A stretch of 64,000 bases of DNA, from assembly GCA_050084515.1 (NCBI GenBank), contig CM114271.1, positions 17,608,001-17,672,000 of the forward strand, given 5' to 3'. Of this stretch, positions 2 to 37,947 are shown in pieces. Both the position numbers and the translations under genes were made by a program. Under the pieces are notes generated by a model. That model did not search any database, was not told the origin of the DNA, and saw nothing but the letters and a program-made list of their open reading frames with translations. The stretch is from Blasia pusilla (taxonomy: Eukaryota). The first letter of the stretch is position 1; every line of letters starts with the position of its first letter.

Positions 2-650
2 AGATTCAGCAGGCAGGCATCCTTAGCGTCTTTTTCACCGCACTTGCTACTTTATGGCCGAGAGCCAGATTTACCTGCGGCCATTCGTCGAGATGCTGGT
101 GAGGTGCTGGACCTTGATGACCCCAGATGTATGGGTGCGAGCTTGTTCTCAGAGGGCTGAGTTATTTCAGAGAGTGATGCCCATGGCGTTTGAGAACTTG
201 GCGATTGCACAGCATCGGGATACGTTGAGGTATGCGACTATTCGGGATGGTGGTTATCGACCAACTATCCGGAGGTTTGATCAAGGAGATTATGTCTACT
301 TGCAACAGACGGCACCCACGATGTTGGATGTGACTGCAGGGCGCACTATCCTTAGAGTGCGTGATATTTTGCCATCAGGTGTTCTCTTGCTGGAGGGACG
401 CGATAGTATGGTATGGAAGGACCATGTGCGTAATTGTGCGCCATGTCACCTTCCTAACATTGATGGTACAGTAGATCCGAGCTTAGAAATAGTTCCTGCA
501 GGCTTGCATTGTATGTTGTGTGGTTCTGCCCGTGGTGCGGCCACAATGCTAGGCTGTGATGGGTGTTCAAGAGGATGGCATATGGCATGTTTGACGCCAC
601 CTCTCACTAGGGTTCCTCAGGGACGATGGATGTGTCCCAGATGTACATAG
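2..650 (+). pseudogene. Retroviral-type integrase C-terminal part fused to a PHD finger (frameshifted near the start)
   Basis: Frame 2 reads RFSRQASLASFSPHLLLYGREPDLP (end of integrase core). ORF 54..650 has FDQGDYVYL...HVRNCAPC (SH3/GPY-F-like region) and then CMLC...CDGC...WHMAC...WMCPRC, a C4HC3 PHD finger. Confidence 0.88.
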
Positions 651-821: not shown

Positions 822-830
822 AGGGGGGCG
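822..830 (+). promoter_or_regulatory. Polypurine-tract-like sequence AGGGGGGCG
   Basis: Lies downstream of the integrase and directly before repeat B. An equivalent motif occurs in family B at 7883-7892 (-). Confidence 0.65.
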
Positions 831-958
831 ATTGGAGATATTTTGGTACTTCTTGTCTCGTTGTTTGGATGCCATGAGTTAGCATGGGATCATGCGTGTT
901 TGTGTGTGTGTTCGGTGACAACGATGTATGTTGTGTAGCGATGTGTATGCGCACGACA
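831..958 (+). repeat. 128-bp direct repeat B1 (second copy B2 at 1472-1599)
   Basis: ATTGGAGATATTTT...GCGCACGACA is present twice with only a few substitutions. Confidence 0.95.
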
Positions 959-960
959 AG

Positions 961-1410
961 TGTCACGTCTTTTAGGATAGATCGGTGAGATCTAATAGAG
1001 CGCCTTCGTGAGTAGTGGAGGACACGCTCAGTAGGTCGCGGATGACCTGCTGAGGCCCCGGAAAACCTGAGAGAGCCGGTTTCCCCCTTGTTTCGGCTCA
1101 TTTGGAGCCATATTGAGGAACTTACTATTTTAGGTAAGTACCATTTTGAGTATATGATCGACTTTATATTTTTGGTAAGTGGCCCTTGACCTCCTACATC
1201 AGGTCAAGAGCCAAGGAGGTGACTTGGGAGAATAGGTTACCATGGAGAGAGCTTGGGAGAGGGGAGGGGTATACCTCAAGAAGAGAGAGCTTGAGAGCTC
1301 ATTCTCTCTTTGTTGAACCTCTTGGCATGAGGCGGCGGAGCTATGGTACCTTGCCTTGTGAGTGATACCCAAGCCTCTAATTAGGAGAGTGGTTTTGGTT
1401 TGACATGAGA
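961..1410 (+). repeat. LTR-like repeat A of family A (other copies at 7281-7733 on - and 53653-54033 on +)
   Basis: Starts TGTCACGTC. About 450 bp are clearly shared between the three loci. Confidence 0.92.
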
Positions 1411-1471
1411 GAGAGTGCACACCTTTGAGAGCTATGGTGTGAGATGGTGGAGAGAGAGATTGGATCCTACT

Positions 1472-1599
1472 ATTGGAGATATTTTAGTACTTCTTGTCTC
1501 GTTGTTTGGATGCCATGAGTTAGCATGGGATCATGCGTGTTTGTGTGTGTGTTCGATGACAGCGATGTATGTTGTGTAGCGATGTGTATGCGCACGACA
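1472..1599 (+). repeat. 128-bp direct repeat B2, right terminus of the element
   Basis: Copy of 831-958. Ends in CA at the junction with unrelated-orientation RT sequence. Confidence 0.93.
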
Positions 1600-2100
1600 G
1601 CCGCCACTAGTACAAACAATGAACATTTTGGTTCGTGAGGATCGATGCCCCAAAATGCCATCTTCTGCTTGTCCTCCAATCTGATAGGTAGGTGATGGTA
1701 TCCGGCTCGTAAATCTAATGAACTGAAGACCTATGCATACCCAATCATATTTAAGATCTCCAGAGGGGTGGGCATGGCATACCTATCGAACTTTATTTGC
1801 TGATTGATAGGTCGGTAATCTCCACACATCTGCCTATCCGTCCTGTTGCCATGCACATCCTTCTTGGCGGGCATGATAGTGGCAGATGCATACTCTCCAT
1901 ACAATATCTCCACTAGTCGTGCTCCAACCAAGTCCTGCCTCCTACTCTGAATCAGAGCCCTCTCCATATCACTGTACCTGTAGGGATTTCGAAAGATTGG
2001 CGTGTCACTCAACAACTCAAAGCAGACCCCTGGACCCTTCAACATACCCAAATCTTGCATGCTAAATGCAAAACAACTCCTATAACTCCTAAGGAACTGG
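1600..2100 (-). pseudogene. Reverse transcriptase N-terminal half (Ty3/Gypsy), decayed
   Basis: PIFRNPYRYS, YASATIMPAKKD, RQMCGDYRPIN, DRYAMP, KMAFWG. Confidence 0.9.
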
Positions 2101-2487
2101 TGTATCCGGCGCCGCTCTCCTCCTGTCTATTTAGGGCCCATATTTGGCTCCCAAGTCTCCATCGTGAAAATGGTAGAACTCTCCGGCACGGGTGTCGGTG
2201 GTTGCTATGGTGCAATTATGTCTCGGACAATAGAACTCTCATTTCCACGTGCAGTACTCGGAACCACGCTCGATGCTATGGCTACCATCTCATAACGTAT
2301 CTGCAAAACATCCCAAGAAGTCAAAGGGTGTCTCTCCCGATCACCTCGGCCTGGTGTGTCGATCTTCTTGGATCTCATCCCCAACCACTGCCTCAACCGT
2401 CTCGGTAGGCATAGGGCTCACCAACGCAACAACTGTGATCTTTGCATCCACAAACAATGCTGCTCAGCTACTCCTAAGCTAAAAATT

Positions 2488-3445
2488 CATGTCAAGAAAT
2501 TCAGGTCCATCACCTGACCCAAGATATGACGTCGTAATGCCTCTCATATTATGACGGTATTACAGTCACTCCTGTGGGGAATCCCATCGCTCCCTCTTGC
2601 TCTTTGGCGTTGGGCTCCACCAATCGCTGTACCTGGTCATCCCAAACCAAGCCTGGTCCGGCCTCCTTGAATTCATAAGAAGCGGGAAAACTCACCAAGG
2701 TGGGAAAGGCTGCATGTGGCATGCAAATCTTGTTGGCCACAGTCAACGGCGGTCGATCATCATGCCGTACCACCTGTGATCGATGACCTCGATCCATAAT
2801 ACAATCGACCAACAAATTGGATGGGCGCTCCACTCTCGCATATGCGAGAGTGGAGCGCCCATCCAATTTGTTGTGGTACCAAGTTGGTCAACCAAAGACG
2901 CGGGCGGTGTGCTCTAGAACCTACACTCACCGTATCTAGCAATACTGCTAGCCGATCCATGCGCGCACCTGATGTGCACTCGTCACCACGCGAGACCTCG
3001 AATCGCCCAAAATTGGCACATTCTCTCGAATATATGCTAAAGAACAAGGCTGATGCTCCTATAAATGTCGCAAGATCTGCATTTTCTCCCAAAACAATCT
3101 AGACTGAGTGTCAGCTAACCCCCTACCTTGTCCAACACTCCATTGGCCCTGACACGGCCGACCAGCAATGACCAAGTCTATGGTCCCTACTTGCTCCAAG
3201 TCCCGCCCGAGCAATGAAATGTCCCTTGGTAGGGAACTCTAGTAACCCTAGATGGCAGACGCAGGCAACAAGTCGGGAAAGTGGAGGCAAAACTACGCCA
3301 CATGATGAAGTTAAGCGCGCCTTGCAACATCATCAATCTCCACATACAGGTACTAGTGCACATGTACACCCGACTGCAAAACAATAGCTAACCCAGTGCT
3401 CATCCCTCCAAAGAGATCCAACACCCAAATACCCTCCTCTAGGAT
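2488..3445 (-). pseudogene. DNMT3-like C5 DNA cytosine methyltransferase domain inside retrotransposon pol
   Basis: Manual translation gives motif I IWVLDLFGGMSTG, motif II YLYVEID, motif IV IDLVIAGRPCQG, GLADTQSRLFWE, motif VI YIRENVP, motif VIII LDTVSVGSRAHRPRLWLTNL, motif IX EQEGAMGFPTGVT and motif X ILGQVMDL. There are several stops and frameshifts. Confidence 0.92.
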
Positions 3446-4399
3446 GCGTCATACAATGGGTGTGGTATACAAGGGCATCATCATAGCACTCTTGACTACC
3501 TTGGGTTCCTTTGACGTGTCACGCTCTGGTGCAAACGTCTCGCTCCACGCGGTCTGCACATGCTTAGTGGCTAAGCATCGCAACTCCTCAGTCAAGCCCC
3601 AAAGCGGCACCTCTCCTCTCCTCCACGGATAGATGCGCATACCATGACACTCCTCTCCATAGAAATGTCAGGAACGAGAGTGTACCTTGCATGGACATGT
3701 CGCTCAATCAAATCACTAGGCCAAGTGATGGCATTGCTAAAAGCTGCTAAGGTCGCCATCTCTCCCGATCGTCGTTCAATCACTCCACTCTTAAATTGAA
3801 CGAGTAATGAACAAAGTTTTCCATCATCGGACTCCCATCCTGGTCTGTAGGATGCTGACTCCTTCCAGTAATCCAGGGAAAATCCCATCGGGTATAACAC
3901 TGCTCCACCAACCAAGACGTCGTAGGACCCTGCATCGCTCACTATCGCATTGGCTCGCACCACATACTCATCTGTAGGATGTCCTGGGCGCATCCTCACC
4001 ATGATCTCCTATCGGGTGATATACTATGTGGTACTCGCTCCATCCAAGGATGTCTCTATTTAGAATGGACAACGCTCCACATCAACTCTCGTCAAACCCA
4101 ATCCTCTAAATGAAGCTTTCCCCAACATCAAGGGTTACGCTCCTAAATCCAAGAAGACGCGCTGAGCACCAAAAGCTCTACCTTTGGGCTCATATTTTTT
4201 ATGCTCATATTTTTGATGCTCCTCCTGGGCATAAAAAATATGAGTCGTCGCTATCGTTTCTCCCATTGCCTTCCGTGCATGCACACCAAGAACATCACCA
4301 ACTCTTCGGGAACTCTGATCAGGACCCATCGATGGGATCCTCATTGCCTCGGACAACATGAAAGACTGAGGAAGCCTGGCTTGTTTCTTGGCATCCCCT

Positions 4400-6091
4400 C
4401 GCTATGGATCCAACTCTACGACTGCTCCACTCGTCATAATTGCGGCAACCTCCATCTGGGCAATCCCGCACATCCAACCAAGATCCTTCATATCTCTGGC
4501 TGCTCCATATGGTGTCGATGCCATGGATCCGGCATCGGGTAACCTCAATCCCATAGCAGCAATCTGCTCCTGTAGCTGCTGTATCTGAGCAGCCATCCCA
4601 GCCTCACGTGCAACATCTCTCTCCATGCGTCTAGGTAGTGGGACTCTACCTCATCCATAGGCAACTCCACCACTCTGTCGGGCAACTCTAGCTCCTCTTC
4701 CCCCAACGAGACCACCTAGTGCATAACCTCTAGGCCTACTCGGACCGGCTACTTGCTCTAGTGCCCTCTTTGGCCCTCAGTCCGGACGTAACCCAGGGTG
4801 TAAAGTGAAACACCTGGCGCGTGTGTGACCATACCTCTGACAATATTCACACTGATAACCTCTTGGTGAAGCACCATCTCCTCCTCTATGGTGAGACACA
4901 CGTCCATGACCTTGACGAGTGCAATCACCCTGATGATGTGCTCCACCACATGACCAACAAATAATCGTAGGCGGTTGCTTGTGAGCCACATATGAAGGCG
5001 CAGGTCTCTGTGGCAGGGCCTCTGGGTATCCCCCCTGAGCTTGTGGTGCCACAGACCTATCTCGGAATCCACGTTGGTGCATTGGTGGTGTAGACAATCA
5101 TGATTGCTCTCACCCACAATCCATGGTGGCTACACTCTCCTCCGCCATGTTATGCTCAATATTCTCGGCGATTTTAAAAACATCTCTCAATGTAGGAGAG
5201 GTGTTCCTAAGAAGCACCCCCTTCCGCACTCGTATCCTCAGGGTTCGATCTAGCATCGCGTACCATGACTGGATAGTATGAGCCTCTATCACCCCCCGAG
5301 TGACGTTGATCAACCGGCGCAAGCGAGTGTAAGCCTCACGCAAACTCTCACCCGGGCGCCTTTGGAAGTCGTGGATGCTTTGCAACTTCTCCGTCTGTAC
5401 TCCCTGGTAGCACGCCCACAATTCAGCAAAGAACTCAACCACGCAGTTAAATCTGGGACGCACCCGATTGGACGGTGGGTGCAACTGGTCCAATGCAAGT
5501 GACCCCTCCTAGAACATCACTAGTGGAAGAGGAAGTAGCCTCTCTTGACTCCTTCTCCTCATCTGGGAACACCTCCGTCCATGATACATAGTGTGGGTCA
5601 TAGTAGAGTTGCCATGTCTCAATCTCCTAGGCATATGTGTGGGAGAACTCATGGTAATCGTCCATGGGTGCCCCCTCTAAGTGCTGGAACATACCGTTCC
5701 ATGTTGTAAATGGGTTGAACTCTCTAGAGTTCCTAGCCCACTGTGAGTCGCACCAACTCCTAAACTCAACGATGAAGTCGTGCAACTCTATCGTGCCTAT
5801 TGCACTTGAGAACCTACGCAGTCCTCTACCTCGGTCATCCATCTCGTACGCCCAAGCAGTAGGACTACTCAATGTGAGTGCCAAAGCACTACTCAACTCC
5901 TCCACGCCCTCCTCCTTGTCTGAAGATAACATAGAAGGAGGTCGAGGTAGTCCCGCACGTGGAGACCCTCGAAACCTCACACCACTTTGAGTAAACCCTA
6001 AAGAGCTACTCTCAAGTCCACTACTTCGCGTCTCTAAACCCCGAAAGGATGCCGTGATGATCCTCGTGCCCCTCTCACCGATCACTCTCAA
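4400..6091 (-). pseudogene. Gag of family A copy 2 (fragmented)
   Basis: Retrotransposon-gag-like FQRRPGESLREAYTRLRRL and two CCHC-type knuckles, spread over several frameshifted ORFs. Confidence 0.8.
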
Positions 6092-7994
6092 TCTTGATAG
6101 TAATCCTTCAATAACTCAAACTAAATATGCGGCACTCAATCTATACTCTCTTAGTGAGACGTGTACTGTGCGGCAACAAGCGGTGTGGTCCGGCAAATCA
6201 ATTGATCTATCGTCTCATCGAAAAACCATCCTCAACTCTAGACATCCCACACGGGTCTATATCCCCTAAACCAATACATCATCGATGCTCTCACCATGAG
6301 CACAAAACCCAATATCCCAAATAACTTCCCAATACCCGAAAATCCCTCACACGTGCAGGGTAAGAGACCACAATGGATAACTTGACAAGAATGTCGATGT
6401 CGCTCCTCGGCAGTTGCAAATCTCAACCCCAACTTGATCGTGCATACAACTCCTTCAATTAGCAAGTCGTACTCCTCTCGTATAAATGTTGCTCAAACCT
6501 CCTCAGTATGTGGTGCAGATCCAGCAATACGGCACGGAACGGCTATAGAACGGCACGACACTCGATAATGGGATGCAGCACTCCGCGGCATACCCTACTC
6601 ACGCAGTGACGGTGGATCATTGACGGTGACGGTTGACCATTGACGGATGACTGTTGAAGGCGACGGCCGCCGCCGGCGCGGTGGATGGTTTAGGGTATGA
6701 ACAATTTTACCCTAAAAATCGCCTAACAATGGCAATTTTGCAAAATCAGCCAAACTTTCTGCTAGTAGCTCTAAATTGCAGAGTGTCTATTGCATAGCGT
6801 GCACAACTTTACGATCTACAATGGCGTCAAAAAATATTTTGAATAAGACTTTTTAATAAAACGAACAAGGATTTTTGTAAACCCCAACGTCTCTTCTCTT
6901 ATAGAAATTTTGGCAGTGCTTCCGCGCTGATTTCTCCTAATAAAAATATAAAACCTATAAAAATACAAATCAAAAAGCTACATGGTGCTTTTGAGAGCAC
7001 TGGAATGGGGCAACCTGACCCCATACTCAATCCCTATTAGGAATTGGGCAGCGCTTCCGCGCGCCACTCTCTCACACAAAAAATGACACACAAATATCCA
7101 AACATTGTGGATCTTGCTCTCGTGAGCACTCCCATGAGCCCTGAAGTGGGGAACACGATCCCCAACCTGCACCAAACATCGCGCAACTAGCAAGTTTCCC
7201 CATGAAGCTCTTTCATCCTCTCATTTCTCTTTTTGTAAAATAAGGTGAAATCTCTCTCACATGTGTGTAATCTCACATATCTCTCTCAATGTCAAACCAA
7301 ACCCACTCTCCTAATGAGAGGCTTGGCTTACACTCACAAGGCAAGGGACCATAGCTCCGCCGCCTCGTACCAAGAGGTTCAACAAAGAGAGAATGAGCTC
7401 TCAAGCTCTCTCTCCTTGAGTTATACCCCTCCCCTCTCCCAAGCTCTCTCCATGGTAATCTATGCTCCGAAGTCACCTCCTTGGCTCTGGACCTGATGTA
7501 GGAGGTCAAGGGCCAATTGCAAAAATAGAAAATTGACCACATACTCAAAATGGCACTTACCTAAAATAGTAATTTTCTCAATATGGCTCCAAATGAGCCA
7601 AAACGAAGGGGAAACCTGCTCTCTCAGGTTTTTCAGGGCTTCAGCAGGTCATCATTGACCTCTTGAGTCTGTCCTCCACTACTCGCAAAGGCACTCTACT
7701 AGATTTTACCGATATATCCTAAAAGACGTGATAGTTGCCACGATAAATCTCTATCTATCGGCTACTAAGATGTGACAACTGTCGTGCGGATACACATCGC
7801 CACACAACACCACTCTTCCCAACACACGGGTCGATCCATCCATAAACCAAACAACTCATACATATACATCGAGACCCAACAACCGCCCCCCTAGTTGGCA
7901 GTTGGATCCCCCTAACTCCATATAATAAACACCTATGTACCTGGCATGATTTACTATCCTATATACATTGGTGCCGTCATCCACACAACACTGC

Positions 7995-8065: not shown

Positions 8066-11000
8066 GGCACGACTCCACCTCTGGCTCACGAGTTCGTCTC
8101 CAACAAAAATAACAAAGCTCCGTACCATGGGAAGAGACACGCGCCCTGACATGTCTCTCCGTGGGACTATCCGCTGCGGGAATTTCCTCCGCATGTGTGA
8201 TCCTCGATATCGCCTTTCCGTAACCCCAACGCCAAACATGCCGTTTTCCCTAACATCAAGGGTTGCGGTTTGAATCAAGTAGGGCGCGTGGCGGGTCGTA
8301 CACCGTACATGTGGGACTAACCAAGAAAAACACTACTACTCGATTATCCAACAACACCACACCCGGTGTGATCATGGCTCGCTCAATGGCCGGTCGAGGT
8401 GGCATATCTACCAACTTTTTTGCCACAGAGCGTGCCTTGACTCAGTGGGAGAGGTCCCGAGCACATGCTCCAAGGGAAAGTCTATCACCTCCTCAACTAC
8501 CTCTGAACGAGAGGAAATCATCTCTCCACGCTCACACAACATGGTGGCCAGCCGAAATACCTCCATTGGTCCAATTCCCAGCGTTGCCAACTCCATGGCG
8601 GAAAACAATGGAGCGTGGCTCACCCTAATGGCCACCTCCAACAACATGGTCGACATTGGCTCCTCCCGAGCCCGTATAGGAGTCGTCTCTCCAACTCCTC
8701 GTGACGTCGACGCACCTATCCCACCCATAGGTACTACCAGTCTTTGAGGCACCATCGACGGTGTATGTAGTGCCTCTGACAATGTGATAGACTGGGGAAC
8801 CCTAGCGTGCCGCCCATTGTTCCCCTCCTCTAGGTCAATCTCAACCCTACCTCTCGATGGGTCGGTTACTCTCGCAGCACCCCGAGTCACCACCGAGGCA
8901 GCCTCAACCTGAGTCGCATTACATATAAATCCCATCCCTGCAGAATCCTCACCAGCATTGGGGTAAGATGTGGAGGTTGGCGCCACATTAGCTACTCTCA
9001 GCTCCGCGCCTGCCTGCATCATCGTCATGGCAGCAATCCTATGCTTCAATTGATCGATGTGAGTAAGGAGCGCTGCATCGGATGCACGTCCTCCATCTCT
9101 TGTGATTGGTGGTGGCACTCTACCATGACGATCATCAACTTCTCTCACCCCCAGGCCCTTTGCCTTCCCCTGGACGTATCGCTTGGCAAAGATCAAAACA
9201 CCTATCCCTAGTGTGACCATATCGGTGACAATGATTATACTGCAACTATGATAGAGCCATCCTCTATGGCTCCTAAGAAATTGTAGGCACCCGTGGCCCT
9301 CTTCCATGTTGTGGGCAGTCCCTCTGCCTATGTGGCCTACCACACGTCCAACAAGCCAACCCTGGTCCATGCTGGGAAACATATGTTGGAACGGGCCGTT
9401 GCATCATCGACTCATGATATCCGCCATGCTCTCTAGGCCTAGCGGCCCGCTCTTGAGGTACTAGTGCATGTTGGGGCACCTTTGGGTCTACTCCTACTCG
9501 TCCACCTGTTGTATCACACAAAAATCCCCTTGGTTAGCACCTGCTTCTCACTCATGTTGAGTTCTACCCTCTCAGACAACTCAAAGACCACCTTCAATGT
9601 GGGCTTTGCTGTGTGAAGCAACATCGCATCCCGAACTCTCTTCCGTAGCTCCTCATCCAACACCCCGTACCATTACTCCATTGACAACGCCTCAATCACC
9701 CGATATGTTGCAATGATCAATCTCCGCATGCGCGTGAATGCCTCTCTCAGACTCTCACCGGATCGTCCCTGAAAATCATGTAGACTCTTCAGCTTGTCGG
9801 TGTGTACGCCTTGGTAGCTCTTCCCCAAGTGTTGGAAGAACTGCACTGTGGGACTGAAGCTAGGTGGCCCTCTACTACCACAGGTCTCTGCCATATTGTG
9901 TGTATCACTGCTCTCCTTTCCATCTAGTCTTTGGGCTGATGGTGTGGGTCTCTCTCCTCTCACAATCCCATGAGATGCCTTGCGACCACTAGTGGATGCT
10001 TACCCTCGAGCCCAATACATCCTCCAGGCATCAATCTCTTCTGAATATAGCGATCAGAACTCCATATAATCATCCATCGGAAGACCCTCCAAGTGCTGGA
10101 ACAACCCCTTCCATGCCATGAAAGGGTTGAACCATGTCGGGATCCGTATCTCCTAGAAGTCGCACCACGTGTCAAACTCTTGGATGAAGTCATCTAGGTG
10201 GATGGTGCCCACTTCACCCGAGAAATGACGTATGCCCCGATGGTTGATGTCGACCATCTCCTGCCAAGTGACATTGCCTTCGTCTGCGATCTCGTCACCA
10301 GACCGACTGTTTAGTGATGACGATCCAGCTACGGACGGAAGTCGAGGTTGCTCCTTGCTCATAACCCCTCGATATCTCAGTCCACTTTGTGTCACACCAC
10401 CACTACTGCTCAAACTACCCCATTTTTCCCAACCCTAGAAGAACGCCGTGACGATCATCTTGTGTCACCCGCTCAAACACTGAGACTCACCAAGAGTCTC
10501 CCGCGCTCCTCACTAGCTCACATATGCTAATGGTAACCTCGTGATGACACACCTGGCTTCACGCACACTCAACACTCGGGCTTACCCTGAGCCTCTCGAC
10601 TATCTCACCTAATCACCAACATACGCTCATGTCATACACTCGATCCCTACTCGCAAACCGCCATACAAACATGCTAAACATGAAAGAAATCTACACTCGT
10701 CACCATAACTGAACCCATCTAGCACTTGCTACTACCCAACCCAGCACTCTCATTGACACAAGACAAGTGCAGGAAAAGGGACTCGAATGGATAACATGAA
10801 TACTCCCACCAATCAACTACTCCATCAACACTCACTCCTCCATGTGGCTCGGCAACCTCCGCAACACAACCATCTCCTTGCACAACGAGTTGATCCTCCC
10901 ATCACCGGATGCAGACAACCCATCGGCATCATCATATGCATCTCCATCAGTAACACTTGCAAATCCTTGCCACGCTCGAAAAACATCAAGTCTCAAAAAT

Positions 11001-14698: not shown

Positions 14699-14832
<134 letters not shown>

Positions 14833-15208: not shown

Positions 15209-15262
<54 letters not shown>
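15209..15262. repeat. (CT)n microsatellite
   Basis: Direct reading. Confidence 0.98.
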
Positions 15263-15266
<4 letters not shown>

Positions 15267-22149: not shown

Positions 22150-23600
22150 ATAGCAATGGCTTCTTCATCATCCAATCACCGCCTTAAACGGACCGATAGA
22201 AGAAACTATAGCACGTGGTCTTTTTCTATGATGTATTTATTGAGTGCTTAGAAACTCTTTAAGTATGTAGAATGGAAAATCGAAGTCCAAGTGAAGAAAA
22301 TGCGCGTGCGAGAGACAAATGGGATGAGGAAGAGATGGAAGCGAGAGCATAGATTTTTTTGCATATAAAGCCATTGCGAAAGTGTAGGATAGCAAAGGAG
22401 ATGGGGGAAGTGTTAGCTCAAGTCAACATGTGTATTGTACTCGGCTGAACGTCCCCGCCCCCATTGGGGCGGTCATAAACGGCGAGCAAGCTCGCCTTTC
22501 AAGGATCTTCATGATAGAAGATAGAATTTTAGACACATAAGCAACATAGTTGTGGTCCTCTTAATGCGAGAGATAATCAAGAAGAATTCAGCAAAAGCAC
22601 CAAGATCATTAGTAGATTTTGTTCGCATTGATTTTGCTACCGATGTGCATATCCAAGGGGATCGAACCAAGATCCAAAATTTGGATGAAAGAGCATCCAT
22701 CCAATTACGAGGCTATGATGGCAATATAAATAAATCACGTAGACAAAGTGAGATGCATTCCACATTTTTGGGTTTTAAGGGAGAGCGCACTCCGATGATT
22801 GTGAAGAATTTACATTGGGTGTCTGGTGCACAAGATATGCTTGTTTCGGCTGCAATCTTGTGCAAAAGGGGTTGCAAATTCAATTTGGATGGAGATGGGG
22901 TAGATTGGTTCCTACTGTCTAGAGATCTCCTTGCTCATGGCAACCTTGAGGGAAAGGCTTCTCTCATGTGTTATGAAATTGAGGAGACCACAATTATGGC
23001 AAAAGCTTGTATTCTTGCCACTCGGTCACTTTTTGAGTGACACCAAGCATTGGCATCAACAATTTGTGAAGCAGAGCTTACAAGAGTTGTTGAAGGTTTG
23101 AAGAAAAAGAGCTAATGCCAACATGTGAGGCAAGTATCGTCGAGAAGGAAGCCCATAAATTCAAAATGGGTTTTTTGCACCAAGTTTGCATCAAATGGAT
23201 TATGAGCGTTCAAATTACGATAAGTTGCAAAAGGCTACTCCCAAGTCGAATTTATTGACTATCATGATACTTTTGCACTTGTGGCACGTCTTGCAACAAT
23301 TCGTGTGTTTTTCACCTTAATAGCTACTCTGCATTGGAGTGTTCAACAACTTGATGTTGTTTCAGCTTATTTGAATGGAGAACTTAAGGAGGATAATATC
23401 TTCATGTTAGTATCTTAATACTCCTCCAAAGCACAAAGGCAAGGTTGTGCGACTGCTAAAGACTTTATATGGTGTGGAGCAAGTTGGACGTGGATGGAAT
23501 GAGAAATTGGATTGCTCCTTATTGGAATTTGGTTGGAAACACTTTGATTGTGACCCATGTCTCTACACAATGAAGATGGATCAATTGGTCTTCACTATGC
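22150..23600 (+). mobile_element. Degenerate Ty1/Copia fragment (gag/protease remnants and RT)
   Basis: KWVFCTK, VAKGYSQ..IDYHDTFA.VARL.TIR, QLDVVSAYLNGEL, LLKTLYGVEQ.GR.WN. Confidence 0.8.
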
Positions 23601-23929
23601 AATGGGATTTTCATCAAAGTCTTGTGGCTACTCTCCCCATATTGACTCTAAGACTTCAAACTCTCAATAAGCCATTGTCTGGACATTTTGTGGATTCCAA
23701 TTTTTGTGGCTTGGTATCTCATGCTAGTCTTGCTATGGTTTGCCCTTCCTACGAATAGTTTCAAGGCTCCTCTTGAATCTTGATTGATGTAAGTTTTCCT
23801 CCAATAGCTTGGAGGACCACTATATAAAATCTTCATTGATATCTTCTTCCATCTCCCATGGCTGCATGGATGATCTCAGATAATTTGATTCATGTTTGAT
23901 GTATTAAGAGGTCCTCTCTTATCTATTCA

Positions 23930-24280: not shown

Positions 24281-24580
24281 CGCTCGCAAGAAAGCGTTAG
24301 ATCTCGTCCGGGGACATGATCGTATTTTTTTCTCTCAAGAAAGCGTTGAATTTCATGAGGAGATATCCTAACTCTGCTCGCAAGAAAGCGTTGGATCTCG
24401 TCGGGAGACATCATAACTTTTCTCTCAAGAAAGTGCTGCATTTCGTCAGGAGATGTCATAATTCTGCTCGCAAGAAAGCGTTGTATCTCGTCAGGAGATA
24501 TCAGAAATTTTCTCTCAAGAAAGCGTTGGATCTCATCAGGAGACATCCAACTTCTGCTGCACGAAAGCGTTGGATCTCTA
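24281..24580. repeat. About 45-bp tandem repeat (about 7 units, alternating subtypes) inside ORF 24136..24945 (-)
   Basis: The core CAAGAAAGCGTTGGATCTCGTCAGGAGA recurs. On the minus strand it translates as SPDEIQRFL(ERK/ASR). Confidence 0.9.
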
Positions 24581-26552: not shown

Positions 26553-27357
26553 AAAATTATGGAAACCTATTACCTACCAAGAAACCCCTCATTTCCTACA
26601 AGTGTCTTCCCGACCAGTTTATGGCTTTCGGCCTTTAAACGAAGCGGATATCTTTTACTCTTACCAGCTGCAGTTACTCCTAACCCAATCATTGTTGTGA
26701 ATGGGATCCTAATGGATAGATCATAAAGCACCCTTAATGTTATCTTTGGTGTGCAAATTATGTTATCCATTGTCAATGAAATAGGTGTTCATAAAGGTGA
26801 GGCCATACTCCATGACACACATGACTTAATATTTTAAACAAACAAAAGAAAATTGCCAAGAAAATGGGTTTGCGATTCCGTAGACATATGGAAAATGCCT
26901 TCATTGATTACGCTTGGTTTTCTTTTTCCATCTAACCGATTCCCTTCTCTTCTCTTGGGCATGTTGATAATTATTCTCTTCCCACCTTATTAAACTTATT
27001 AAAGGGTCACACTTTCCATTGTGTTCCAAAATTGAATATTTTTTTATTATAAAAAATTCGGAGACATCTTAAGGGATGTCATGATGAACATTGACATAGC
27101 GTAAATGAAGAAACTATCCACTAATCTACTATTATTGGAAAGTGTTCTATCACTTTGCAAATTCCTCCATCGATGAGATCTTTTTAAATTAATCAAAATG
27201 GCGGCTGAAAATTAATCGTGACAATTTAATCGTGCCATAACTTGTAGGTTTGGGAACATGGATGGATTCCGCGAATGCGTGTTGTGCACGCATATGCAGC
27301 AGAAGACCGAAATGGGAGATAAGGAAGGCTGTGGAAAGCAGCATCAGAGAAGATCTC

Positions 27358-30300
27358 TCAGAGCAGTGAATTGCGTTGGAGGTTCGTTACAGGTCCTCGG
27401 AACCAGTTCCTGGCACTGACGATCCACGATCCGAGAGCGAGAACGAACACGCCGCCGACAGCTACGGGAGTGTAATTGAGAGTGTCGGCCCGAACGGGAT
27501 ACGCAACGGGAAGGCAGAAAAGCACCGTTATGGTGACGACCCACAGGACGGCAATCCAGCCCACGAAGATGCTGAAGCGCCCCAAATCGAGGGGCCCCGG
27601 TTTGAATGTGTCGCGCGCCGTGGTGATCCGGAAGAGGATGGGCAACGCGTACGCGATGTACAGCCCGATCGTCGCGACGGACACCATGGCTTGGAACGCC
27701 ACCAGACTTCCCAATGACTGCACAAGGACTCGCAACGGGCGGTTTCAGATTCTCGTGCACAATCGAAATAAATAAATAAATGACGGCGAATATAGAGAAG
27801 AGATTGGGGCACTTTTCGGAGACTTTTTGTGAGCCTTCCGCTTTCGAAACGATCGGCACACGGAATCGTGCACGCCACAGCTAATTTGACGGCGAGAGAA
27901 GAAGAAAGCTGGGGGCTTCTTACCGTCAGCGCCATGGCGAAGGCCATGACGACAGAGAGCCATACGGCGTTGCGCGGAACTTCTCTCCTGTCTGTCACAT
28001 TCCACAGTCTGGAGAACGGGATCGCACCGTCTCTGGAAAAAGCGAACGCCATCCTGCCAAACGCAACAACGACGCCGCTCACGGTCAGCACTGGCTGCTC
28101 TCGTCTATGGCAGAGCAGCAACACGGGGACTCCCGACAAAGGGACGACTCGGAATCAAGATACCTCGAGTTGCTTGTGACTGAGCTCATGCCGCAGAAAA
28201 AGATGGCAACAGCCACGACACCCAAGCAAAAAATGCCTCCCGTCCCACTACCATATCTGTCCTTGAAAACATCGTAGAAGACTTGGGCTATGGCGTAACC
28301 CTTCGCGTCATTCTCCGGGTCCAGCAGCCGTGATGGGTCCACGACGGCGAAGGTGATGCCTACGAGATAGCCCCAACCGACCACGATCGATATCGCGATG
28401 GAACTCAAGATGCCGTAGGCACCATTCTTGTCTGAGGATTTGGTCTCCTCGGACTGTAAACGCAGCACACAACGCCAGACACGATACTTTCGGTCAGCAA
28501 ATCCATCGATATGCTCAATCTTCCACGACTTGCATCGATGCAGACTGACTGCTCCACGAGAGTAGTAGTAGTAGTAGCTGAGCAATCACAAAGCCAAAGA
28601 AGGGAAAATCTAAGCTTTGGATGCATATGTGGGGCAGATTCACTGGTTGTATATGAGATGCAGTCCAGTGAGAGGGCATCTAACAAAAAATGGGAGAACT
28701 CATTCTTGAGGGATATGAGGGTCCGATCGTACTTACCATGTGAGCGGATGCATCGTAACCACTCAACGTGTACTGACTCATCAATAAACCCAACAGGAAG
28801 ATGTATGATTCGCTCTGGATGCCGGCACCGTTGTCTCTGTTGAAGGACGAAAAAACGGAGCTTACAGTTTGCCTTTCAGTGGCGACCATGGGGATCAACA
28901 TCATCAGGACAAACACACCTGCCAAAAGATTTCAAGCCGTGGCTATCCCATGTGTCAAAACACGTCTTCTTCGTTGGCCAACTCCATCGACCTTCTCAGT
29001 CCATGGGGTTGTGGGTTTGTTCTTATAGCTATCGAGAATTGTAATAAGCCATCGCAGATGATGATGATTTCAGCATGCCCTCAAATAGTGCACAAGGTCA
29101 TGCAAAAATCATGAAACTAGAAATGGATAACACAGAACCACAATTTTATATACCTACAGGGTGAAGAAAACGTACCAAATATATTCCAAAATGCTGCGAG
29201 GGTTCCCAAGTAAGCCAGAATGTGAATAGACATGCTGTTCATGAGGCCATGAACAACTAAGATCCCAGCATGAAATGCTATCACGACATACTTGGACGCG
29301 AAATATCCACCACCATTTCCGCCTCCAGTAGCTAGCAAAATAATGACTTGCATCAGAGTGGCCAATGAAAAGTCGATACTTGTTGTCACGGCCCACTGCA
29401 TCACAGAAATGCACATGGACGTTTCTTCTCCTGATCAGTGTAGTTCGAATATTCCTCCCACGTTATGGCTTCGAAGATGAGTATCTACTTCATCCAATTC
29501 AAGGTGCGAAGCAGACTGAACGTCCTAACTCGTCACGTCAAGCAGAGTGGTGTTTTTCAGTCGTGCCAATATATCTTGAGCTAACTTGAGGATGTTTAGG
29601 TGCTGACTTCGGAAATTTAAAGCAGAAGCACGACTCTGAAGTGGAGCACAACCAAACGTGGGTATCCCAAACCAAACTGAACCTTCAAAACAAAGACTTT
29701 GGAATTGATCTAGAGCAAGGAAGATGCGTGACGGACCTGGCCAACCAAGTTGTACCTGCAGCGGTCAGACACACTCACATGTTTTAGTACTTTCTTCCAG
29801 AGGAGAATTCCAGCTCGTTATGAACTCAAAGTGCAGTAGAGTAGAGTTCCAAAGCATAGTCTATCATGGAGAGAGGAAGACAAAACGCCAGATAAGATTG
29901 GTCATGCCTGGAGACTTGACCAATCTTAGGAGGCTTACTAGTACACTATCATTCGAGGCGACAGAACATCCACACCATGACATTCAAGAGACGACTGACC
30001 AGCCAGTCATCCATGATGCGAAGGGCCCCCATGAAGGCCCTGCCAGTTTGTAACTCCAGTAGTAAAGACCACCAGAAGTGGGGTATGCAGAGCATATCTC
30101 AGCCATGGACAGACCCACAAACATGTTGAAGAATCCTGTGATGAGCCATCCGTAAGTCATCGATATAGGTCCACCATATCGAAGTCCAGTGTTGTAAAGA
30201 GTGGTGATGCCTGTCAGTATCGAGATGATTGCGAAGGAGAAGGCAAAATTGGAAATCAGTCTGCAGACATCCAAAGAACAAGTCGTCAAAAGAGAGAGCA

Positions 30301-33040: not shown

Positions 33041-36000
33041 TCTTGAAGACTAAATTATAGTCAAGTTGATCGGACATACAAACTGCAAAATTTGGTACTC
33101 ATACAAAGTATTAAAGTTGAATCTTTGTTAAATAGTTAAATACGATTATCTTCAGTAGGATTAGTCAACCACAGTTACTCCATACTAGGGTTGAGACAAG
33201 GATTAGGATTGCTTGTACATACCCTATATAATTGAGAAGAGGACCAATTGTCACTCATTGTCTCATTGCAAAATTTTGTCATGAGTTTTGCTTGTTTAGC
33301 AATTTTCTATATGATATGAGAGCAATAAGAGAACATCAATTGAAATTCTTGACATTTAAGGAGATAAGAGAGGCAAGATAAGGCACATTGTCAATTTGGA
33401 AAAAGGAAATTTCAATTAGAGAAATTTCAATTAATGAAAGAAAGTTATGATGTTTGCTCTGTATGTGCCAATTTTGACTAGTGCTTCCATATATTTAGTC
33501 TATTTTGGAAATTTTAATATCAATTTCTGCATAGGAATGATCTATGGATCAATTGGAGTAGTGGAAAGCCTGATATAATATTTTTTTGAGTAAAATTGCA
33601 ACAAATTATTCCTCAACAATAATTACAAGCGAGAAGCTAGATAAGCAAAATTACAATGTCAAGAAATTTTGCATGAAGCAATTTCTCATGGATCAAGAAC
33701 TCAGGGAGCTTAGTATATGTAATGAGACCAAACGAGAAGGTTACTGAAGAGACTGAATATGTGCGCCCAAAACAAACGCGCAAGGCAATCAATTTGCCAA
33801 TGATTGGTTACATTCAAGATATTGATATTTCGAAGGAGACGTGGGATGCATTGGAGAAGTTGTTCCAAACATCTACGAAGGCAAAGAGCTTCAATGGAAA
33901 AAAAAATTGAACGAATTGAGGAATAGATCGCAAAGCATCAATAACTCTTTTTTGAATATTAGACATATTTTTCATCTATTGAATAGCCTTGGAGTGTCTG
34001 TAGAAGATAATGGTCTACTTTGTTCACTCTCTAAGGCCTTCCAAAAGATTACAAGTCTTTTGAGACCTTTATCTTTGTGTGTTATTCGCATGCATTGGAT
34101 CAAACAAAGGCAGAGATCGTGATAAGAGCTTCCATGGTCGTGATAGATATCAAGCACATGGAGGAAGAGTCACTCAATATAACTTCACTTGGTCAATTGT
34201 GAACCAATACCAAAATAAGGATGTGGTGATGTTGGAAACCGTTGGAGTCGAGACCTGTAGTAGAGGATCCCGAGATCTTGCAATTCGTGTGGAATAAAAG
34301 GTCATTATGTAGAGTTTTACTTCAAGAAGAAGGCAGATATGAGAAAGGGAGCTTTACAACAATAAAACTATGTGGAGCAAAAAGATAAAGTGTAGTATCA
34401 AGAACAATAACATTGGTTATGATGAAACATAACCTTTTGGTTACGATTCATTATATAGGAGCAATAGTGAAGAAGGACTTGACAACATATTGATATATCG
34501 ACTCCTGTGCATTAAATCTCATGACCTCACAAGCTTCATGGTTCATTACTATAGAGTCTATGAAAGATCCTATAATAGTGCTCATAGGAGATGGTACTCA
34601 ATATTATCAACATCATATCACGCATATCCATAAAGTCCCAATAGCATTAAATGGTCTTTGTGCTCTTGGAAATATTCTCTATGTTCCTACCATTACAAGA
34701 AATTTGATTTCTCTAAGACAGATAGTAGAACAGGATTATCAGATGAGGTTGAATATAGATGATTATTTCATTGAAACAATGGATGATGAGACTATGATAG
34801 CCAAAGGAACAAGATCTGACAGAATGTTTAAATGAGATGTTTCTATGTCAGAGATTTAAAAAATAATGCATAGTCAAATTGGCCAACAAGTCACATATTT
34901 CAATGTGTGGCATAAGAGAACGGGACACATAAATCTTCAAAAATTATAAAGTCTTTCATCATCTAATCTAGTAATAAGACTTCCTAAATTATCAAGTCCT
35001 TCTATATTAGAGGAATGCCTTGCTTGCCAATTTGGAAAATAAGCTAGATTTCCATTTCCAAAGTAAGGTAGAAAAGCATCCAAGATATTGGAGCTCATTC
35101 ACAGTGATGTGTAGACAACATCACAACATAGCCTTAGTAGTTTTCAGTACTTTGTTTTATTCATTGATGATTTCTCTAAGTATATATGAGTATACTTTAT
35201 GAAAGCCAAGTTAGAAGTATTCTCAATTTTTCTAACATTCAGAATTCTGGAATAAAGCTGATAGGACAACACATTCTCAAATTATGTTGTGATGAAGGAG
35301 ATGAATACCTTTCAACAAAGTTTGATTACTACATACGTCAAAATGGCATCCAATGACAAATGACTTGACGTTACACTCTACAACAAAATAGAGTGGTTGA
35401 GCGAAATAATCGACGTATTGTAGAGGTGGCACGTGTATTAAATAAGAAGAGCATACTTGAGGTGTATTTGGCAGAGACTGTAGCGTGCGCAATCTTTTAA
35501 TCAATTGAACTCCAACAACTTGAATCAAATAATAATACAATAAGACTCCATTCGAAGTCTTCACATGAAGTAAACGTGATTTTCTATTCTTGAAAAATTT
35601 TCATGTTCCTTCTAAAAAACGTCAGAAAATTAGATCCCAAATTTGAGAGATGTCTCTTTATTGGCTATAGTGATGGAACTAAGGAGAATAAGTACTATAT
35701 TCCATCCTCTATGCAACTTATTATTAGTCCCAAAGTTATTTTGGATAAGCTCAAGTGATGGTTTGCTCCATCTAAGCCTATTGCACCTCTAAACTTGTCT
35801 ATTGAGGGAGATAATACGACTATAATCCAATAAAAATTGCCTAAAAACTCCCCAAGTACTAGTGCACAGTTAGGAAAGGTCTTACAATCTTCAATTAAAT
35901 GAGTCAATCCATGGTCAGAAAGAGTACGCATTAGTCTGTTGACACTAGTCAGAGCTCAAGTCAGATCTCCGAGGCATCCATCTCTGAACAACAACTTCAT

Positions 36001-37947
36001 AGATCAAGTATCCTCATACATCCTATTCATAGATTCATAAATGAAGGATTCCTTGCAATATATCTTGAGTATATGATGATTGTTCTTCAAGAACACGAAC
36101 TGAGTTATTTTGAAGAACTTGCATGTAAGGTCAAATGGATTGAACCTATGGAGGAAAATAATTTTGTTGCATTAAGATATCAAAAGATTTGGGAGCTCGT
36201 TGTTATACCTTACGATAAGGAAGTTATTGGTTGCAAATGGGTTTATAAATTCAAGCGTAATCAAGATAGTATAATGAACTGATACAAAGCTATATTGATA
36301 ATCAAGGTCTATGTACAACAATATGGCATAGATTATAAGGAGATATTTAGCCATGTTCCAAAGATGGCGACTACGAGAATAGTGGCTATAGTTGCAATAA
36401 GTAAGAAGTGGAGATTACATCTCATGGACGTCAGTAATCTTTTCTTGAATGGAAATTTGCATGAGGTTGTATACATGGCTCAACCACTTGGATATGAGCA
36501 TCCAAAGTTTTCATTTCGCATATGCAAGTTAAAGAAGGCTCTATATGGGCTCAAGCAAGCCCCAAGAGCTTGGTATTCCACGATTACATATATCCTACCA
36601 AAACTTGGCTTTAGAGTTTGTCATTCTAATTCCTCATTATATATCTTGAGAGGACAAGGCCATACGATTATCATTGTTTTGTATGTTCATGAATTCTTGA
36701 TTATTGGGAGTACATAGGATATGGCACAATAAGTCAAGCTAAAACTTACAAGAAGAATTTGAAATGAAGAACTTATGAGAACTCAAGTACTTCCTTGGAG
36801 TTAAGTTTATTAGAGTTGGATAGAGCATGTGGTTGTTACAGCAACAATATGCTCTTCACATGCTTTCAAAATAATTGCTTGTAAGCCAATCTGTACGGAC
36901 CATAATGTGAAGCTAAGATTGTATGAGGGAGAGTTTCTTGCATATTCTAATATGTACAAGCTTATGGTTGGAAGTTTGATCTATCTGACTATTACTTGTT
37001 TGAACTTAAGCTACATAATTGGCCCAGTGAGCTAGTTCATGCAAACACCTCGGAAACCTCACCTTGATGTTGTTAAGAGGATTATGCCTTATGTGAAATT
37101 CTTTGTTCAATTTGGGCTTCAATTTGAACTTTTTCCGAGTTTACAATTATGAGGATTCATAAGTATTGATTGGGCAAGAAGAGTGTCAGATAGACACTCT
37201 ACATCTAGTTATTCCTTCATCTTGGGAAGCATAGTTATAAGTTGGGTCTCAAAGAAGCAGCCTACAATTATTTTATCTTCAATAGAGGTTGATTATAAAG
37301 GAGCAACCAATATAGTATGTAAGGAAGGCGGTGTGGCTTCATAAATTACTTTTTCAGATTGAGGTTAGTAACTTAGGACCTAGTGTAATATATGTAGACA
37401 ACATGAGTAACGGCAAGCTTGCTAATAGCATTGTGTTTCATGCTCAAACAAAGCATGTTGAGGTGCACTACCACTTTATCAAAGAGAAAGTACTTGCACG
37501 AGAAATTGATATTGTGTATGAAGGTATAGATCAAAAAATTGTTGATATCTTCACAAATTCATTGTCTAGAGAAAAGTTTGAGATGTTAAGAAAGGATTTA
37601 GTTGTTAGAGATATCGATATGAGCTTGAGGGGAAGTATTGAAGATTAGTTATAGTCAAACTCATCGGACACATGAACTACTATATTTGGTACTCATACAA
37701 AATAGGAAAGTTTAATTTTGGTTAGTTAGTTAAGCATAATTATCTTAACTAGGGTTAGTTAACAATATTTTGTATAACTCGAGACTATGGTCGAGATTAC
37801 GGTTAGGGTTTCTTGTACGTACCTTATATAATTGAGAAGAGGATTAGCCTCCACTAATTCTCTCATTGCAAAATTTCATTTTATATGGTGGTGTGTGAGT
37901 GTAAGAGTTGTATCCCATCTGTTATGCTTGTTTAGCAATTTCCTATT
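33041..37947 (+). mobile_element. Full-length but degenerate Ty1/Copia LTR retrotransposon
   Basis: LTRs at ~33041-33309 and ~37636-37947. Decayed tRNA-iMet PBS TGATATGAGAGC at 33312-33323. Gag, protease (YIDS), integrase, RT (IGCKWVYK, LHLMDVSNLFLNG, LKKALYGLKQAPRAW) and RNaseH (TKHVEVHYHFIKE) motifs. PPT GAGGGGAAG. Possible TSD CTCAC/TTCAC. Confidence 0.9.

Follow-up and report, generated by a model that had tools for sequence, protein, structure and literature searches.

The segment from 822 to 1599 forms the 3' end of a retrotransposon of the Ty3/gypsy type. Its integrase is of the DDE class, with a PHD finger at the C-terminus, and its terminal repeats are truly split. It is well supported that elements of this kind carry a repeat A at the left end and the series PPT-B-NN-A-s-B at the right end, where NN stands for two nucleotides and s for a spacer. 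It should be noted here that the split layout is a composite, put together from copy 1 (the 3' end studied here), from element Y and copy 3 (5' ends), from element X (both ends, interrupted) and from L001, an intact relative found on a public contig. The window, that is the whole 64-kb stretch that was analysed, contains no complete copy, and the 5' end and interior of copy 1 fall outside of it. Y and X belong to subfamilies other than that of copy 1. All the shuffle tests given below used mononucleotide shuffles only.

Copy 1 is represented by the end of its pol ORF (27-650, plus strand, stop at 648-650), which codes for the C-terminal region of the integrase and the PHD finger. The PHD finger was detected in 27-647 by Pfam (1.5e-11). 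The ORF is 62% identical to residues 851-1043 of L001 ORF2 and shows 75-83% identity with proteins of Marchantia and Calypogeia, the best named matches being from Marchantia polymorpha and Calypogeia fissa at 72-79%, and longer relatives of the protein contain rve, RT, RNase H and PHD domains. A PPT-like G-run, AGGGGGG (822-828), lies 2 nt 5' of B1 and has counterparts in X and L001. B1 (831-958), the inner of the two copies of the right-terminal repeat, ends in CACGACA and is followed by the dinucleotide AG (959-960), which separates the final CA of B1 from the TG that opens the next repeat. A2 (961-1414, starting with TGTCAC) and the spacer s (1415-1471) together occupy 961-1471, and B2 (1472-1599, ending in CGACA), all on the plus strand, forms the right terminus of copy 1 and adjoins the broken RT of Y. 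B1 and B2 are direct repeats of 128 nt, identical at 125 of 128 positions (97.7%) without gaps. Both end at one and the same base (958 and 1599) and the bases which follow differ, AG in one case and GC in the other. The initial annotation had described this succession of B1, two bases, A, spacer and B2 behind a PPT, and it is confirmed. The 641-nt spacing from start to start can also be read as 1.2 copies of a 641-bp tandem repeat, so that a local duplication or an assembly artefact, limited to copy 1, would explain the pattern. This is hardly credible, and it is refuted in practice by the B-NN-A junction being present in X and L001 also; moreover, B2 stops at the very base that closes B1 at its junction with A, and in independent copies A begins two bases beyond that point. 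A tandem repeat scan of 1-14 kb revealed nothing relevant.

Two other copies of A are found in the window, one at 7733-7280 on the minus strand (89.5% identical to 961-1414) and the other at 53653-54033 on the plus strand (90.1%). The former is A1 of element Y (1600-7733, minus strand), which is cut at 1600 by copy 1 and is collinear with both ORF1 and ORF2 of L001 and with protein P0139. The latter, copy 3, consists of the first ~380 nt of A from TGTCAC onwards and lies inside a hAT-like (DUF4371) transposase gene (52900-53654, plus strand), which is broken where copy 3 starts. The ORF ending at 53654 gave no Pfam match but aligns over residues 9-273 with P0241 (574 aa; DUF4371, hAT-like), and residues 274-574 of P0241 were not found anywhere in the window at E values up to 10. 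The right end of copy 1 is the exact end of B2, inside the RT of Y. The minus-strand RT frame aligns with protein P0127 as far as ...AFWGID (1641), with a weak continuation to ~1611, which places the break of the RT within ~10 nt of 1599/1600. The termini can thus be seen directly in the DNA, at TGTCAC and CGACA as had been proposed before. Left ends start at TGTCAC or a mutated form of it, beside unrelated DNA, in Y (7733), in copy 3 (53653) and in X (13675), and none of the three has a B in front. For copy 3, the score of B1 against the 253 nt upstream was reached in 226/300 shuffles. A sensitive BLAST of the Y and X leaders and of 57.7-59.7 kb and 54.0-55.3 kb gave no more copies of A or B.

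Directly upstream of the A of Y lies the 3' end of another element, X, which the initial annotation had overlooked. This 3' end (7954-7734, minus strand), broken off by Y, contains a pre-PPT region, a G-run AGGGGGG (7892-7886), a diverged B, here called B' (7885-7780, ending in CGACA), the dinucleotide GT (7779-7778) and the first 44 nt of a diverged A that belongs to X itself (7777-7734). B1 is homologous to B', as the score was reached in none of 300 shuffles. Further upstream are the gag-like ORFs of X (8411-10455, minus strand), with 30-55% amino acid identity to those of Y by tblastn. The A of X probably has its 5' start at TCTCAT... (13675-13632, minus strand), and no B-like sequence lies in front of it: the 225 nt upstream of it gave scores reached in 257/300 shuffles with B1 and in 21/300 with B'. 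This A start is assigned to X by the same 44 nt, 37/44 of which are identical to 7777-7734, a score that occurred in 0/300 shuffles.

It could be argued that 7954-7280 on the minus strand is one single 3' end of X, of the form PPT-B'-A in which 44 nt of the A start are partially duplicated, and that Y has lost its 5' repeat. In a permissive BLAST search 761-1414 of copy 1 is indeed collinear with 7954-7280, at 79.6% over 683 columns. However, the divergence along this stretch is uneven, with ~63% identity of B' to the B of copy 1 and 89.5% identity of A. Further, the A start at 13675, which matches the 44 nt, runs on past the point corresponding to 7733, as would be expected if Y had inserted into the A of X. 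We consider a single X end quite unlikely. It would remove only one of the three left ends and would leave copy 3, the 5' end of X and L001 unaffected.

The same junction, CGACA-NN-TGTCAC, is common to three lineages, with NN being AG in copy 1, GT in X and GC in L001. The internal CA-NN-TG junction pointed out in copy 1 was therefore found again in X and L001, and its flanks have diverged, B1 and B' agreeing in 83 of 131 columns (~63% identity). In all three lineages examined B starts 2-4 nt after a run of G6-7, and this adjacency of PPT and B, like the conservation of the junction, is a matter of observation. No purine run of at least 6 was found at the border of B1 and A; the sole G-rich PPT precedes B1 and not A. 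In L001 the G-run (6939-6946) is followed by B, GC and TGTCAC. B occurs once in its 9158-nt unit; no 12-mer of B was found elsewhere in it and the best score was reached in 79/200 shuffles. The first 127 nt of L001 are the same as its last 127 nt, a closure which may reflect assembly collapse and not a real circle.

A conventional LTR of the form A-s-B (TGTCAC...CGACA, 639 bp) at both ends is another way to read these repeats. B1 would then be an inherited fossil, an old LTR fragment left behind between the PPT and the 3' LTR, and the Bs of the 5' ends would have been lost or replaced. The unit A-s-B does have the classic TG...CA ends and a 4-bp inverted repeat, the distance in X from the A start to TGGTGCAG is 638 nt, close to 639, and a borderline B1-like stretch lies within the 5' region of X (13350-13295, 12/300 shuffles). 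Against this, no B was detected behind the 5' A of any element in which it was sought: B1 against 7285-6990 (minus strand) of Y gave a score reached in 37/300 shuffles, or 107/300 with stricter scoring, X's own B' behind the 5' A of X gave 79/300, and L001 has B once per unit. The earlier description of the 5' end of Y as A with no B following it therefore stands, and A plus B at both ends was not found in Y, X or L001. The G-rich PPT also lies in front of B1 and not in front of A. A fossil B1 and a copy of B in U5 would come from separate templates, so that their divergence should be at least as large as that between B and B' (~63% identity), whereas B1 and B2 are 97.7% identical. The conventional reading is disfavoured, and we regard it as improbable. 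The high identity of B1 and B2, set against ~63% between lineages, suggests instead that both Bs are recopied from one template in each cycle.

The search for a primer-binding site gave candidates which did not withstand shuffling. The motif TGGTGCAG, of which the window contains 5 instances, is found 562 nt (Y) and 638 nt (X) after the A starts. As a primer-binding site common to both it was not supported, the match being non-significant (98/500 shuffles). L001 has a similar motif without TGG, which by eye resembles a splice acceptor more closely. Inspection of Y had suggested a diverged B and a PBS-like motif after A, but local alignments tested against shuffles gave this no support, and the resemblance of the end of s to the sequence before TGGTGCAG in X was non-significant too (403/500). 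At ~1411-1431 s shows a weak similarity to the stretch that follows A in Y (5/500 shuffles). A tRNA scan found no tRNA gene in the window.

The enzymes of these elements are those of the Ty3 group. L001 has two intact ORFs of 1355 and 1047 aa, the first with a putative gag followed by PR-DNMT and the second with RT-RH-DDE integrase-PHD. Its ORF2 contains RVT_1, RT_RNaseH, Integrase_H2C2 and rve according to Pfam, and the integrase aligns with that of Ty3 (7q5b, 3.1e-21) and with PFV integrase (2.3e-19), the D, D and E residues being aligned. The order PR-RT-RNase H-integrase is also seen in the relatives P0127, P0139 and P0175, and the closest solved structure for P0139 is the Ty3 Gag-Pol polyprotein (2.2e-94). 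A C5-DNMT domain (PF00145) is present in ORF1 of L001 (6.8e-12) and in P0139 and P0175, and the element at 59698-64000 also has a C5-DNMT inside its polyprotein. In Y, on the minus strand, a gag-like region (5496-4783), a protease region (4161-3703), a degenerate C5-DNMT (3475-2555) and RT (2201-1641) follow A1 and the leader. Its DNMT frame holds 11 stops, and DNA_methylase (PF00145) was still detected at 3062-3238 (1.2e-6). A loss of RT/RNase H from Y had been considered and was dropped, since gag-PR-DNMT-RT is the native order in L001 and P0139. Pfam found gag and zf-CCHC only in the neighbouring element (59698-60846), and neither in the N-terminal part of L001 ORF1 nor in the gag-like ORFs of Y and X. 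Cys-His knuckles were spotted by eye in 56424-57071 (minus strand). No tyrosine recombinase (Phage_integrase) appeared in any Pfam scan; these covered 86 ORFs of at least 110 aa over the whole window, 150 of the 151 ORFs of at least 45 aa in 1-12.7 kb, 85 of the 136 ORFs of at least 48 aa in 50.8-64 kb, and the ORFs of L001. The PHD-bearing ORF, its rve, RT and RNase H relatives and the D, D, E alignment agree with the earlier assignment to a DDE-integrase element. The label Chlamyvir, considered on account of the PHD finger, was dropped because two papers on that clade give chromodomains and make no mention of PHD.

With Ty3/gypsy elements (Metaviridae) the present ones share the order PR-RT-RH-IN behind a gag-like region, the PPT and the TG...CA termini. 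They differ from Ty3 in that the terminal repeats are unequal, the B behind the PPT being absent at the left end and present twice at the right, and in the extra PHD and DNMT domains. The repeats themselves resemble the split direct repeats of PAT/Toc/Kangaroo, Ngaro and Viper of the order DIRS, described as A1...B1-A2-B2 with the internal B1-A2 junction representing the joined termini (PMC4157794). DIRS-order elements integrate by a tyrosine recombinase; here none was found, and RT-RH-IN is Ty3-like, with aligned D, D, E, a G-run PPT and TG...CA termini. The initial annotation took such repeats as typical of PAT, TOC1 and Ngaro and not of ordinary Gypsy elements. The first part is in line with PMC4157794, and the second has to be qualified as the layout is in print for a Gypsy-DNMT3 family as well (PMC5890265). 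That family is KnitGypsy-Dnmt3 of the alga Klebsormidium nitens, which combines Gypsy domains with DIRS-like repeats (de Mendoza et al. 2018, PMC5890265); Fig. 1e of the paper draws the DIRS-like layout as A-coding-B-A-B, and the legend of Fig. 4c applies it to Gypsy-DNMT3. By this description our elements are like it, both in A-coding-B-A-B and in having a C5-DNMT in the polyprotein (Y, L001 and 59698-64000), and the host here is a liverwort. Integrase-PHD proteins of K. nitens are 43-52% identical to the copy 1 ORF, compared as proteins and not as members of KnitGypsy-Dnmt3. The passages of PMC5890265 that deal with KnitGypsy-Dnmt3 give neither a mechanism nor an analysis of junction, PPT or termini. 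Literature searches for 'KnitGypsy' returned only this paper, and no description of such elements from a liverwort was found in them. The liverwort elements are new, and the layout is of a kind already known but barely studied.

A non-canonical scheme of replication, as suggested in the initial annotation, is what we infer from these repeats. The possibility that we favour, though tentatively and at somewhat less than an even chance, is that integration leaves an ordinary provirus in circularly permuted form. The usual two-jump reverse transcription would produce an LTR extending from the PPT as far as the primer site, i.e. B-NN-A-s (831-1471 in copy 1), because it would start right after the PPT. 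If two such LTRs were linked at their ends, in the manner of a 2-LTR circle, the s|B junction (1471/1472) would result. Integrase would then open the joined molecule not at the LTR ends but at CACGACA-NN-TGTCAC within one LTR, so that the inserted copy would start with TGTCAC (A-s-leader) and end with PPT-B-NN-A-s-B (CGACA). In the next round B1-NN-A2 would serve as U3, and B1 and B2 would thus be remade from one template in each cycle. A 2-LTR circle would contain two identical junctions, and cutting of the other one would give a dead-end isomer (A-s-B-NN-A-s...PPT-B). Two steps of this scheme are conjectural, the formation of a circular intermediate and the cut that integrase makes in it. 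That the joined-ends DNA is the obligatory substrate of integration, with the DDE integrase cutting a permanent att site in every LTR, is possible, but we would sooner expect it to be wrong. PFV integrase has been reported to cut 2-LTR circles at their palindromic LTR-LTR junction (PMC1180852), and a like cleavage has been reported for HIV-1 integrase (PMC1905944). The CA-NN...TG site here may be comparable to those circles as a joined-ends site for a DDE integrase. In retroviruses, however, the junction forms when the ends of the LTRs are ligated, and the provirus still has a pair of equal LTRs, whereas in the present elements each LTR would permanently include the cut site in its interior.

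A replication like that of DIRS elements, combined with a DDE integrase, would account for the same repeats in another way. The transcript would start inside A1 and end inside B2, B1-NN-A2 would act as a splint by which a mostly single-stranded cDNA regains complete joined ends, a part which has been proposed for the internal complementary region of DIRS-1, and integrase would insert the product. The very same repeat layout defines PAT, Toc and Ngaro (PMC4157794), the internal region of DIRS-1 is essential and its cDNA is mostly linear and single-stranded (PMC7192593), and a conserved junction suits a splint as well as an att site. On the other hand, the G-run lies exactly at the start of B in 3/3 lineages, which is expected from PPT priming and needless for a splint, and the RT, the RNase H and the integrase all conform to the ordinary Ty3 type. 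We therefore think a DIRS-like replication unlikely, and prefer the circular permutation of a provirus at the strength given above.

Split direct repeats serve as a hallmark of tyrosine-recombinase retrotransposons, and LTR-finding software presumes equal LTRs at the two ends. A Gypsy lineage widespread in streptophytes and having a DDE integrase together with split repeats contradicts both assumptions, and its members would be mis-annotated or missed. The PHD and DNA-methyltransferase domains which these elements carry make them of interest for the interaction between transposons and host chromatin. If the inserted copy is indeed a permuted provirus, the elements would provide a natural system in which an integrase of the retroviral type acts on an internal joined-ends site, and this would bear on the long debate about what part LTR-LTR junctions and circular DNA play in integration. 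Were the joined-ends DNA also their obligatory substrate, they would offer a natural parallel, with a DDE enzyme, to the integration of DIRS and Ngaro elements and to the old circle-junction model for retroviruses.

The 3' end of a Gypsy-type element (copy 1) lies on the forward strand at the start of the window. The initial annotation had read 822-1599 as a polypurine-tract-like G-run (PPT), a repeat B1, two nucleotides, a repeat A, a spacer and B2, and rereading confirmed this layout: AGGGGGG at 822-828, B1 at 831-958, the dinucleotide AG at 959-960, A from 961 with TGTCAC as its first bases, the spacer s up to 1471 and B2, the right terminus, at 1472-1599. B1 and B2 form a 128-nt direct repeat without gaps and agree at 125 of 128 positions. 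When the whole window was compared with itself by BLAST, it showed two further copies of A, at 7733-7280(-) (89.5% identical to that of copy 1) and at 53653-54033(+) (90.1% identical, spanning just the first ~380 nt), and no further full B. Chance similarity is excluded for the A and B matches. In the ORF that stops at 650, Pfam detects a PHD finger (1.5e-11); this ORF shows 72-83% identity to many short proteins, the named sources being Marchantia polymorpha and Calypogeia fissa. RVT_1, RT_RNaseH, Integrase_H2C2, rve and PHD are all present in longer relatives of this ORF, and the best solved-structure match of one relative protein, P0139, is the Ty3 Gag-Pol polyprotein (2.2e-94). These domains and this match identify copy 1 as the 3' end of a Ty3/gypsy element whose integrase is of the DDE type. 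The named hits point to a liverwort as the probable host.

Element Y, at 7733-1600(-), is a second element belonging to this broad family. Collinear with an intact relative, L001, it consists of A (7733-7280(-)) followed by the leader, gag-like sequence (5496-4783(-)), a protease region (4161-3703(-)), a degenerate C5-DNA methyltransferase (DNMT, 3475-2555(-)) and RT (2201-1641(-)). A perfect 64-bp palindrome (32 + 32 nt, without spacer) lies within the degenerate DNMT region at 2810-2873. The RT frame of Y aligns with the relative protein P0127 through ...AFWGID and weakly on to ~1611, and there runs up against the final base of B2. Because the match breaks at the end of B2, copy 1 sits inside the RT of Y with ...CGACA as its terminus; this is the one visible right end, at 1599. 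Three left ends adjoin unrelated DNA, each starting with TGTCAC or a mutated form of it: Y at 7733(-) (TATCAC), inside a more diverged element X; X itself at 13675(-) (TCTCAT); and an A fragment, copy 3, at 53653(+), with a hAT-like ORF upstream. The latter ORF aligns up to 53654 with residues 9-273 of P0241 (574 aa, DUF4371, hAT-like), the remaining part of which is absent anywhere in the window, and this junction is solid. The termini proposed earlier, TGTCAC and CGACA, are thus backed by three left ends and the right end in Y's RT.

At 7733 the initial annotation had described A only, followed by unrelated leader. The A was found, and just upstream of it lies what that reading had missed, the 3' end of X. 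Here 70 nt of pre-PPT homology are followed by AGGGGGG at 7892-7886, X's version of B (B', 7885-7780(-), ending CGACA), the dinucleotide GT and 44 nt with a TGTCAC start resembling the beginning of A. In mononucleotide shuffles of the target sequence, the observed score was reached in 0/300 for B1 against B', for the A start against the 44 nt and for the pre-PPT regions. The 44 nt are seen again at 13675-13632(-) (37/44 identical, 0/300), upstream of X's gag-like ORFs (10455-8411), and this copy extends past the point where Y begins. No B-like sequence was found in the 225 nt before 13675 (score reached in 257/300 shuffles for B1 and 21/300 for B'), and a search of the 687 nt that follow it did not reveal X's own B' (79/300). 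A borderline B1 match at 13350-13295, in X's 5' region (12/300), counts against a split-repeat reading. The simplest account would be that X has the layout A...PPT-B'-GT-A and that Y was inserted later into its 3' A.

A genome-collection scan found L001 as contig CADCWO010000201.1, 9285 nt long and assigned to a MAG that carries a cyanobacterium label; the contig is an intact eukaryotic Gypsy-DNMT-PHD retrotransposon, and bin contamination is likely. Its first 127 nt equal its last 127 nt, giving a unit of 9158 nt. In ORF1 (1355 aa, stop-free) a gag-like part and a protease region are accompanied by DNA_methylase (6.8e-12); ORF2 (1047 aa) contains RVT_1, RNase H, H2C2, rve and PHD, and the integrase can be aligned to those of Ty3 and PFV with D, D and E all in place. 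About 300 nt past ORF2 comes AGGGGGGG (6939-6946), then B (6950-7054, ending CACGACA), GC, and TGTCAC from 7057. B occurs once per unit: none of its 12-mers is found elsewhere, the best local score was reached in 79/200 shuffles, and no second B is present in the 1525 nt between the A start and the gag ORF. That interval also contains a run of ~29 A (near 8155-8183) and a 38-nt tandem repeat (7595-7670). The order is PPT-B-NN-A-...-gag (NN, a free dinucleotide) whether the closure is a true circle or collapsed repeats, whereas a conventional A-s-B LTR would place B between A and the leader.

The B repeat ends at the exact base where B1 joins AG-TGTCAC, so the internal junction corresponds to both termini joined with two bases between. 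The earlier suggestion of a joined-ends CA-nn-TG junction gains from its recurrence: CGACA-AG-TGTCAC in copy 1, CGACA-GT-TGTCAC in X and CGACA-GC-TGTCAC in L001, within strongly diverged flanks (B1 against B', 83/131 columns). Fixed CA and TG around a free dinucleotide is what integrase end-recognition would predict. In all three lineages B starts with TG, 2-4 nt past the G-run, and none has a purine run of at least 6 at the B/A border; by the usual rules, an LTR made by reverse transcription would thus start at B, not A. B1 and B2 differ by 2.3% within copy 1, as against ~37% between junction-bearing lineages, which suggests that both are recopied from one template in each cycle, like LTRs. 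Such concerted evolution argues against B1 being a fossil.

The initial observation was real and its interpretation correct in outline. The split architecture A...PPT-B-NN-A-s-B, pieced from partial copies, none of them complete within the window and copy 1's own 5' end lying outside it, is very probable. A mechanism with permuted LTRs and joined ends is a tentative proposal, somewhat short of an even chance. From reverse transcription with the ordinary two jumps one would expect [B-NN-A-s]-leader...PPT-[B-NN-A-s]; the two LTR ends would be joined, s|B, as at 1471/1472 of copy 1; and opening at the 5' LTR's CA-NN-TG site would yield exactly A-s-leader...PPT-B-NN-A-s-B. Left-end trimming alone cannot give the observed right end, because B2 comes after s. 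PFV integrase is reported to cut the LTR-LTR junction of 2-LTR circles (PMC1180852), and likewise HIV-1 integrase (PMC1905944). The circle model is weakened by its second junction, which is identical to the first and could equally be the one opened, giving dead-end isomers. Chief among the competing explanations is a splint mechanism of the DIRS kind (cf. PMC7192593).

The DNMT occupies two places among related PHD-Gypsy elements: between protease and RT in Y (3475-2555(-)), L001 ORF1 and P0139, and after RNase H in the Gypsy element 59698-64000 (63687-63999(+)), P0175 and P0232. Around the start of the DNMT, 3087-3475 (Y) and 63995-63690 (element 59698-64000) share 75-82% similarity at the DNA level. 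A leader motif, GAT[G/T]TT..GGTGCAG.T.G, at 7174(-) in Y, 13036(-) in X and ~8537-8556 in L001, was rejected as a primer-binding site; it is without statistical support, and the L001 version, in which TGG is missing, is reminiscent of a 3' splice site. A gag-protease fragment at 55308-57797(-), 72-78% identical to Y's in amino acids and cut off on both sides, is oriented opposite to the A fragment 53653-54033 and lies between the broken hAT-like gene and element 59698-64000, so the region is a nest of insertions. Elsewhere a Ty1/copia element, 33043-37876(+), has Pol_BBD and RVT_2 matches at 34494-36714 and diverged direct repeats at its flanks (33043-33276 and 37638-37876, 76%), and a separate RVT_2 fragment is at 23411-23755. 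Apparent host genes are represented by amino-acid permease exons (27347-28585(-)) and a TAF2 Ig-like domain exon (45306-45662(-)). Dinucleotide microsatellite blocks at 14701-14831 and 15209-15266 have one common unit, and a tandem repeat of ~94 nt is at 24282-24578.

A1-B1-A2-B2 split direct repeats define PAT/Toc/Kangaroo, Ngaro and Viper, all with tyrosine recombinase according to PMC4157794, whereas the copy 1 family, with split repeats alike, has a DDE integrase. No tyrosine recombinase was found in Pfam scans of the L001 ORFs and of the window ORFs, which covered 86 ORFs of at least 110 aa over the full window, 150 of 151 listed ORFs at 1-12.7 kb and 85 of 136 at 50.8-64 kb, the others there being mostly antisense and overlapping gag and pol. 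Klebsormidium nitens Gypsy elements with a Dnmt3-type DNMT were described by de Mendoza et al. (2018, PMC5890265), and by the accessible text of that account the combination of Gypsy and split repeats is already in print, without a mechanism. A 2026 preprint (10.64898/2026.05.21.726589) mentions streptophyte Gypsy-DNMT3, and a 2025 paper (PMC12344493) cites de Mendoza 2018 for streptophyte and dinoflagellate DNMT3s within 'LTR Copia and DIRS' elements. No description of split-repeat Gypsy elements in liverworts was found in literature searches. The family belongs to a kind that is known yet barely characterised, to which the present analysis adds a second and a third junction, a conserved att-like site (CACGACA-NN-TGTCAC), the adjacency of PPT and B, the apparent concerted evolution of B, the intact relative L001 and a concrete, testable model.
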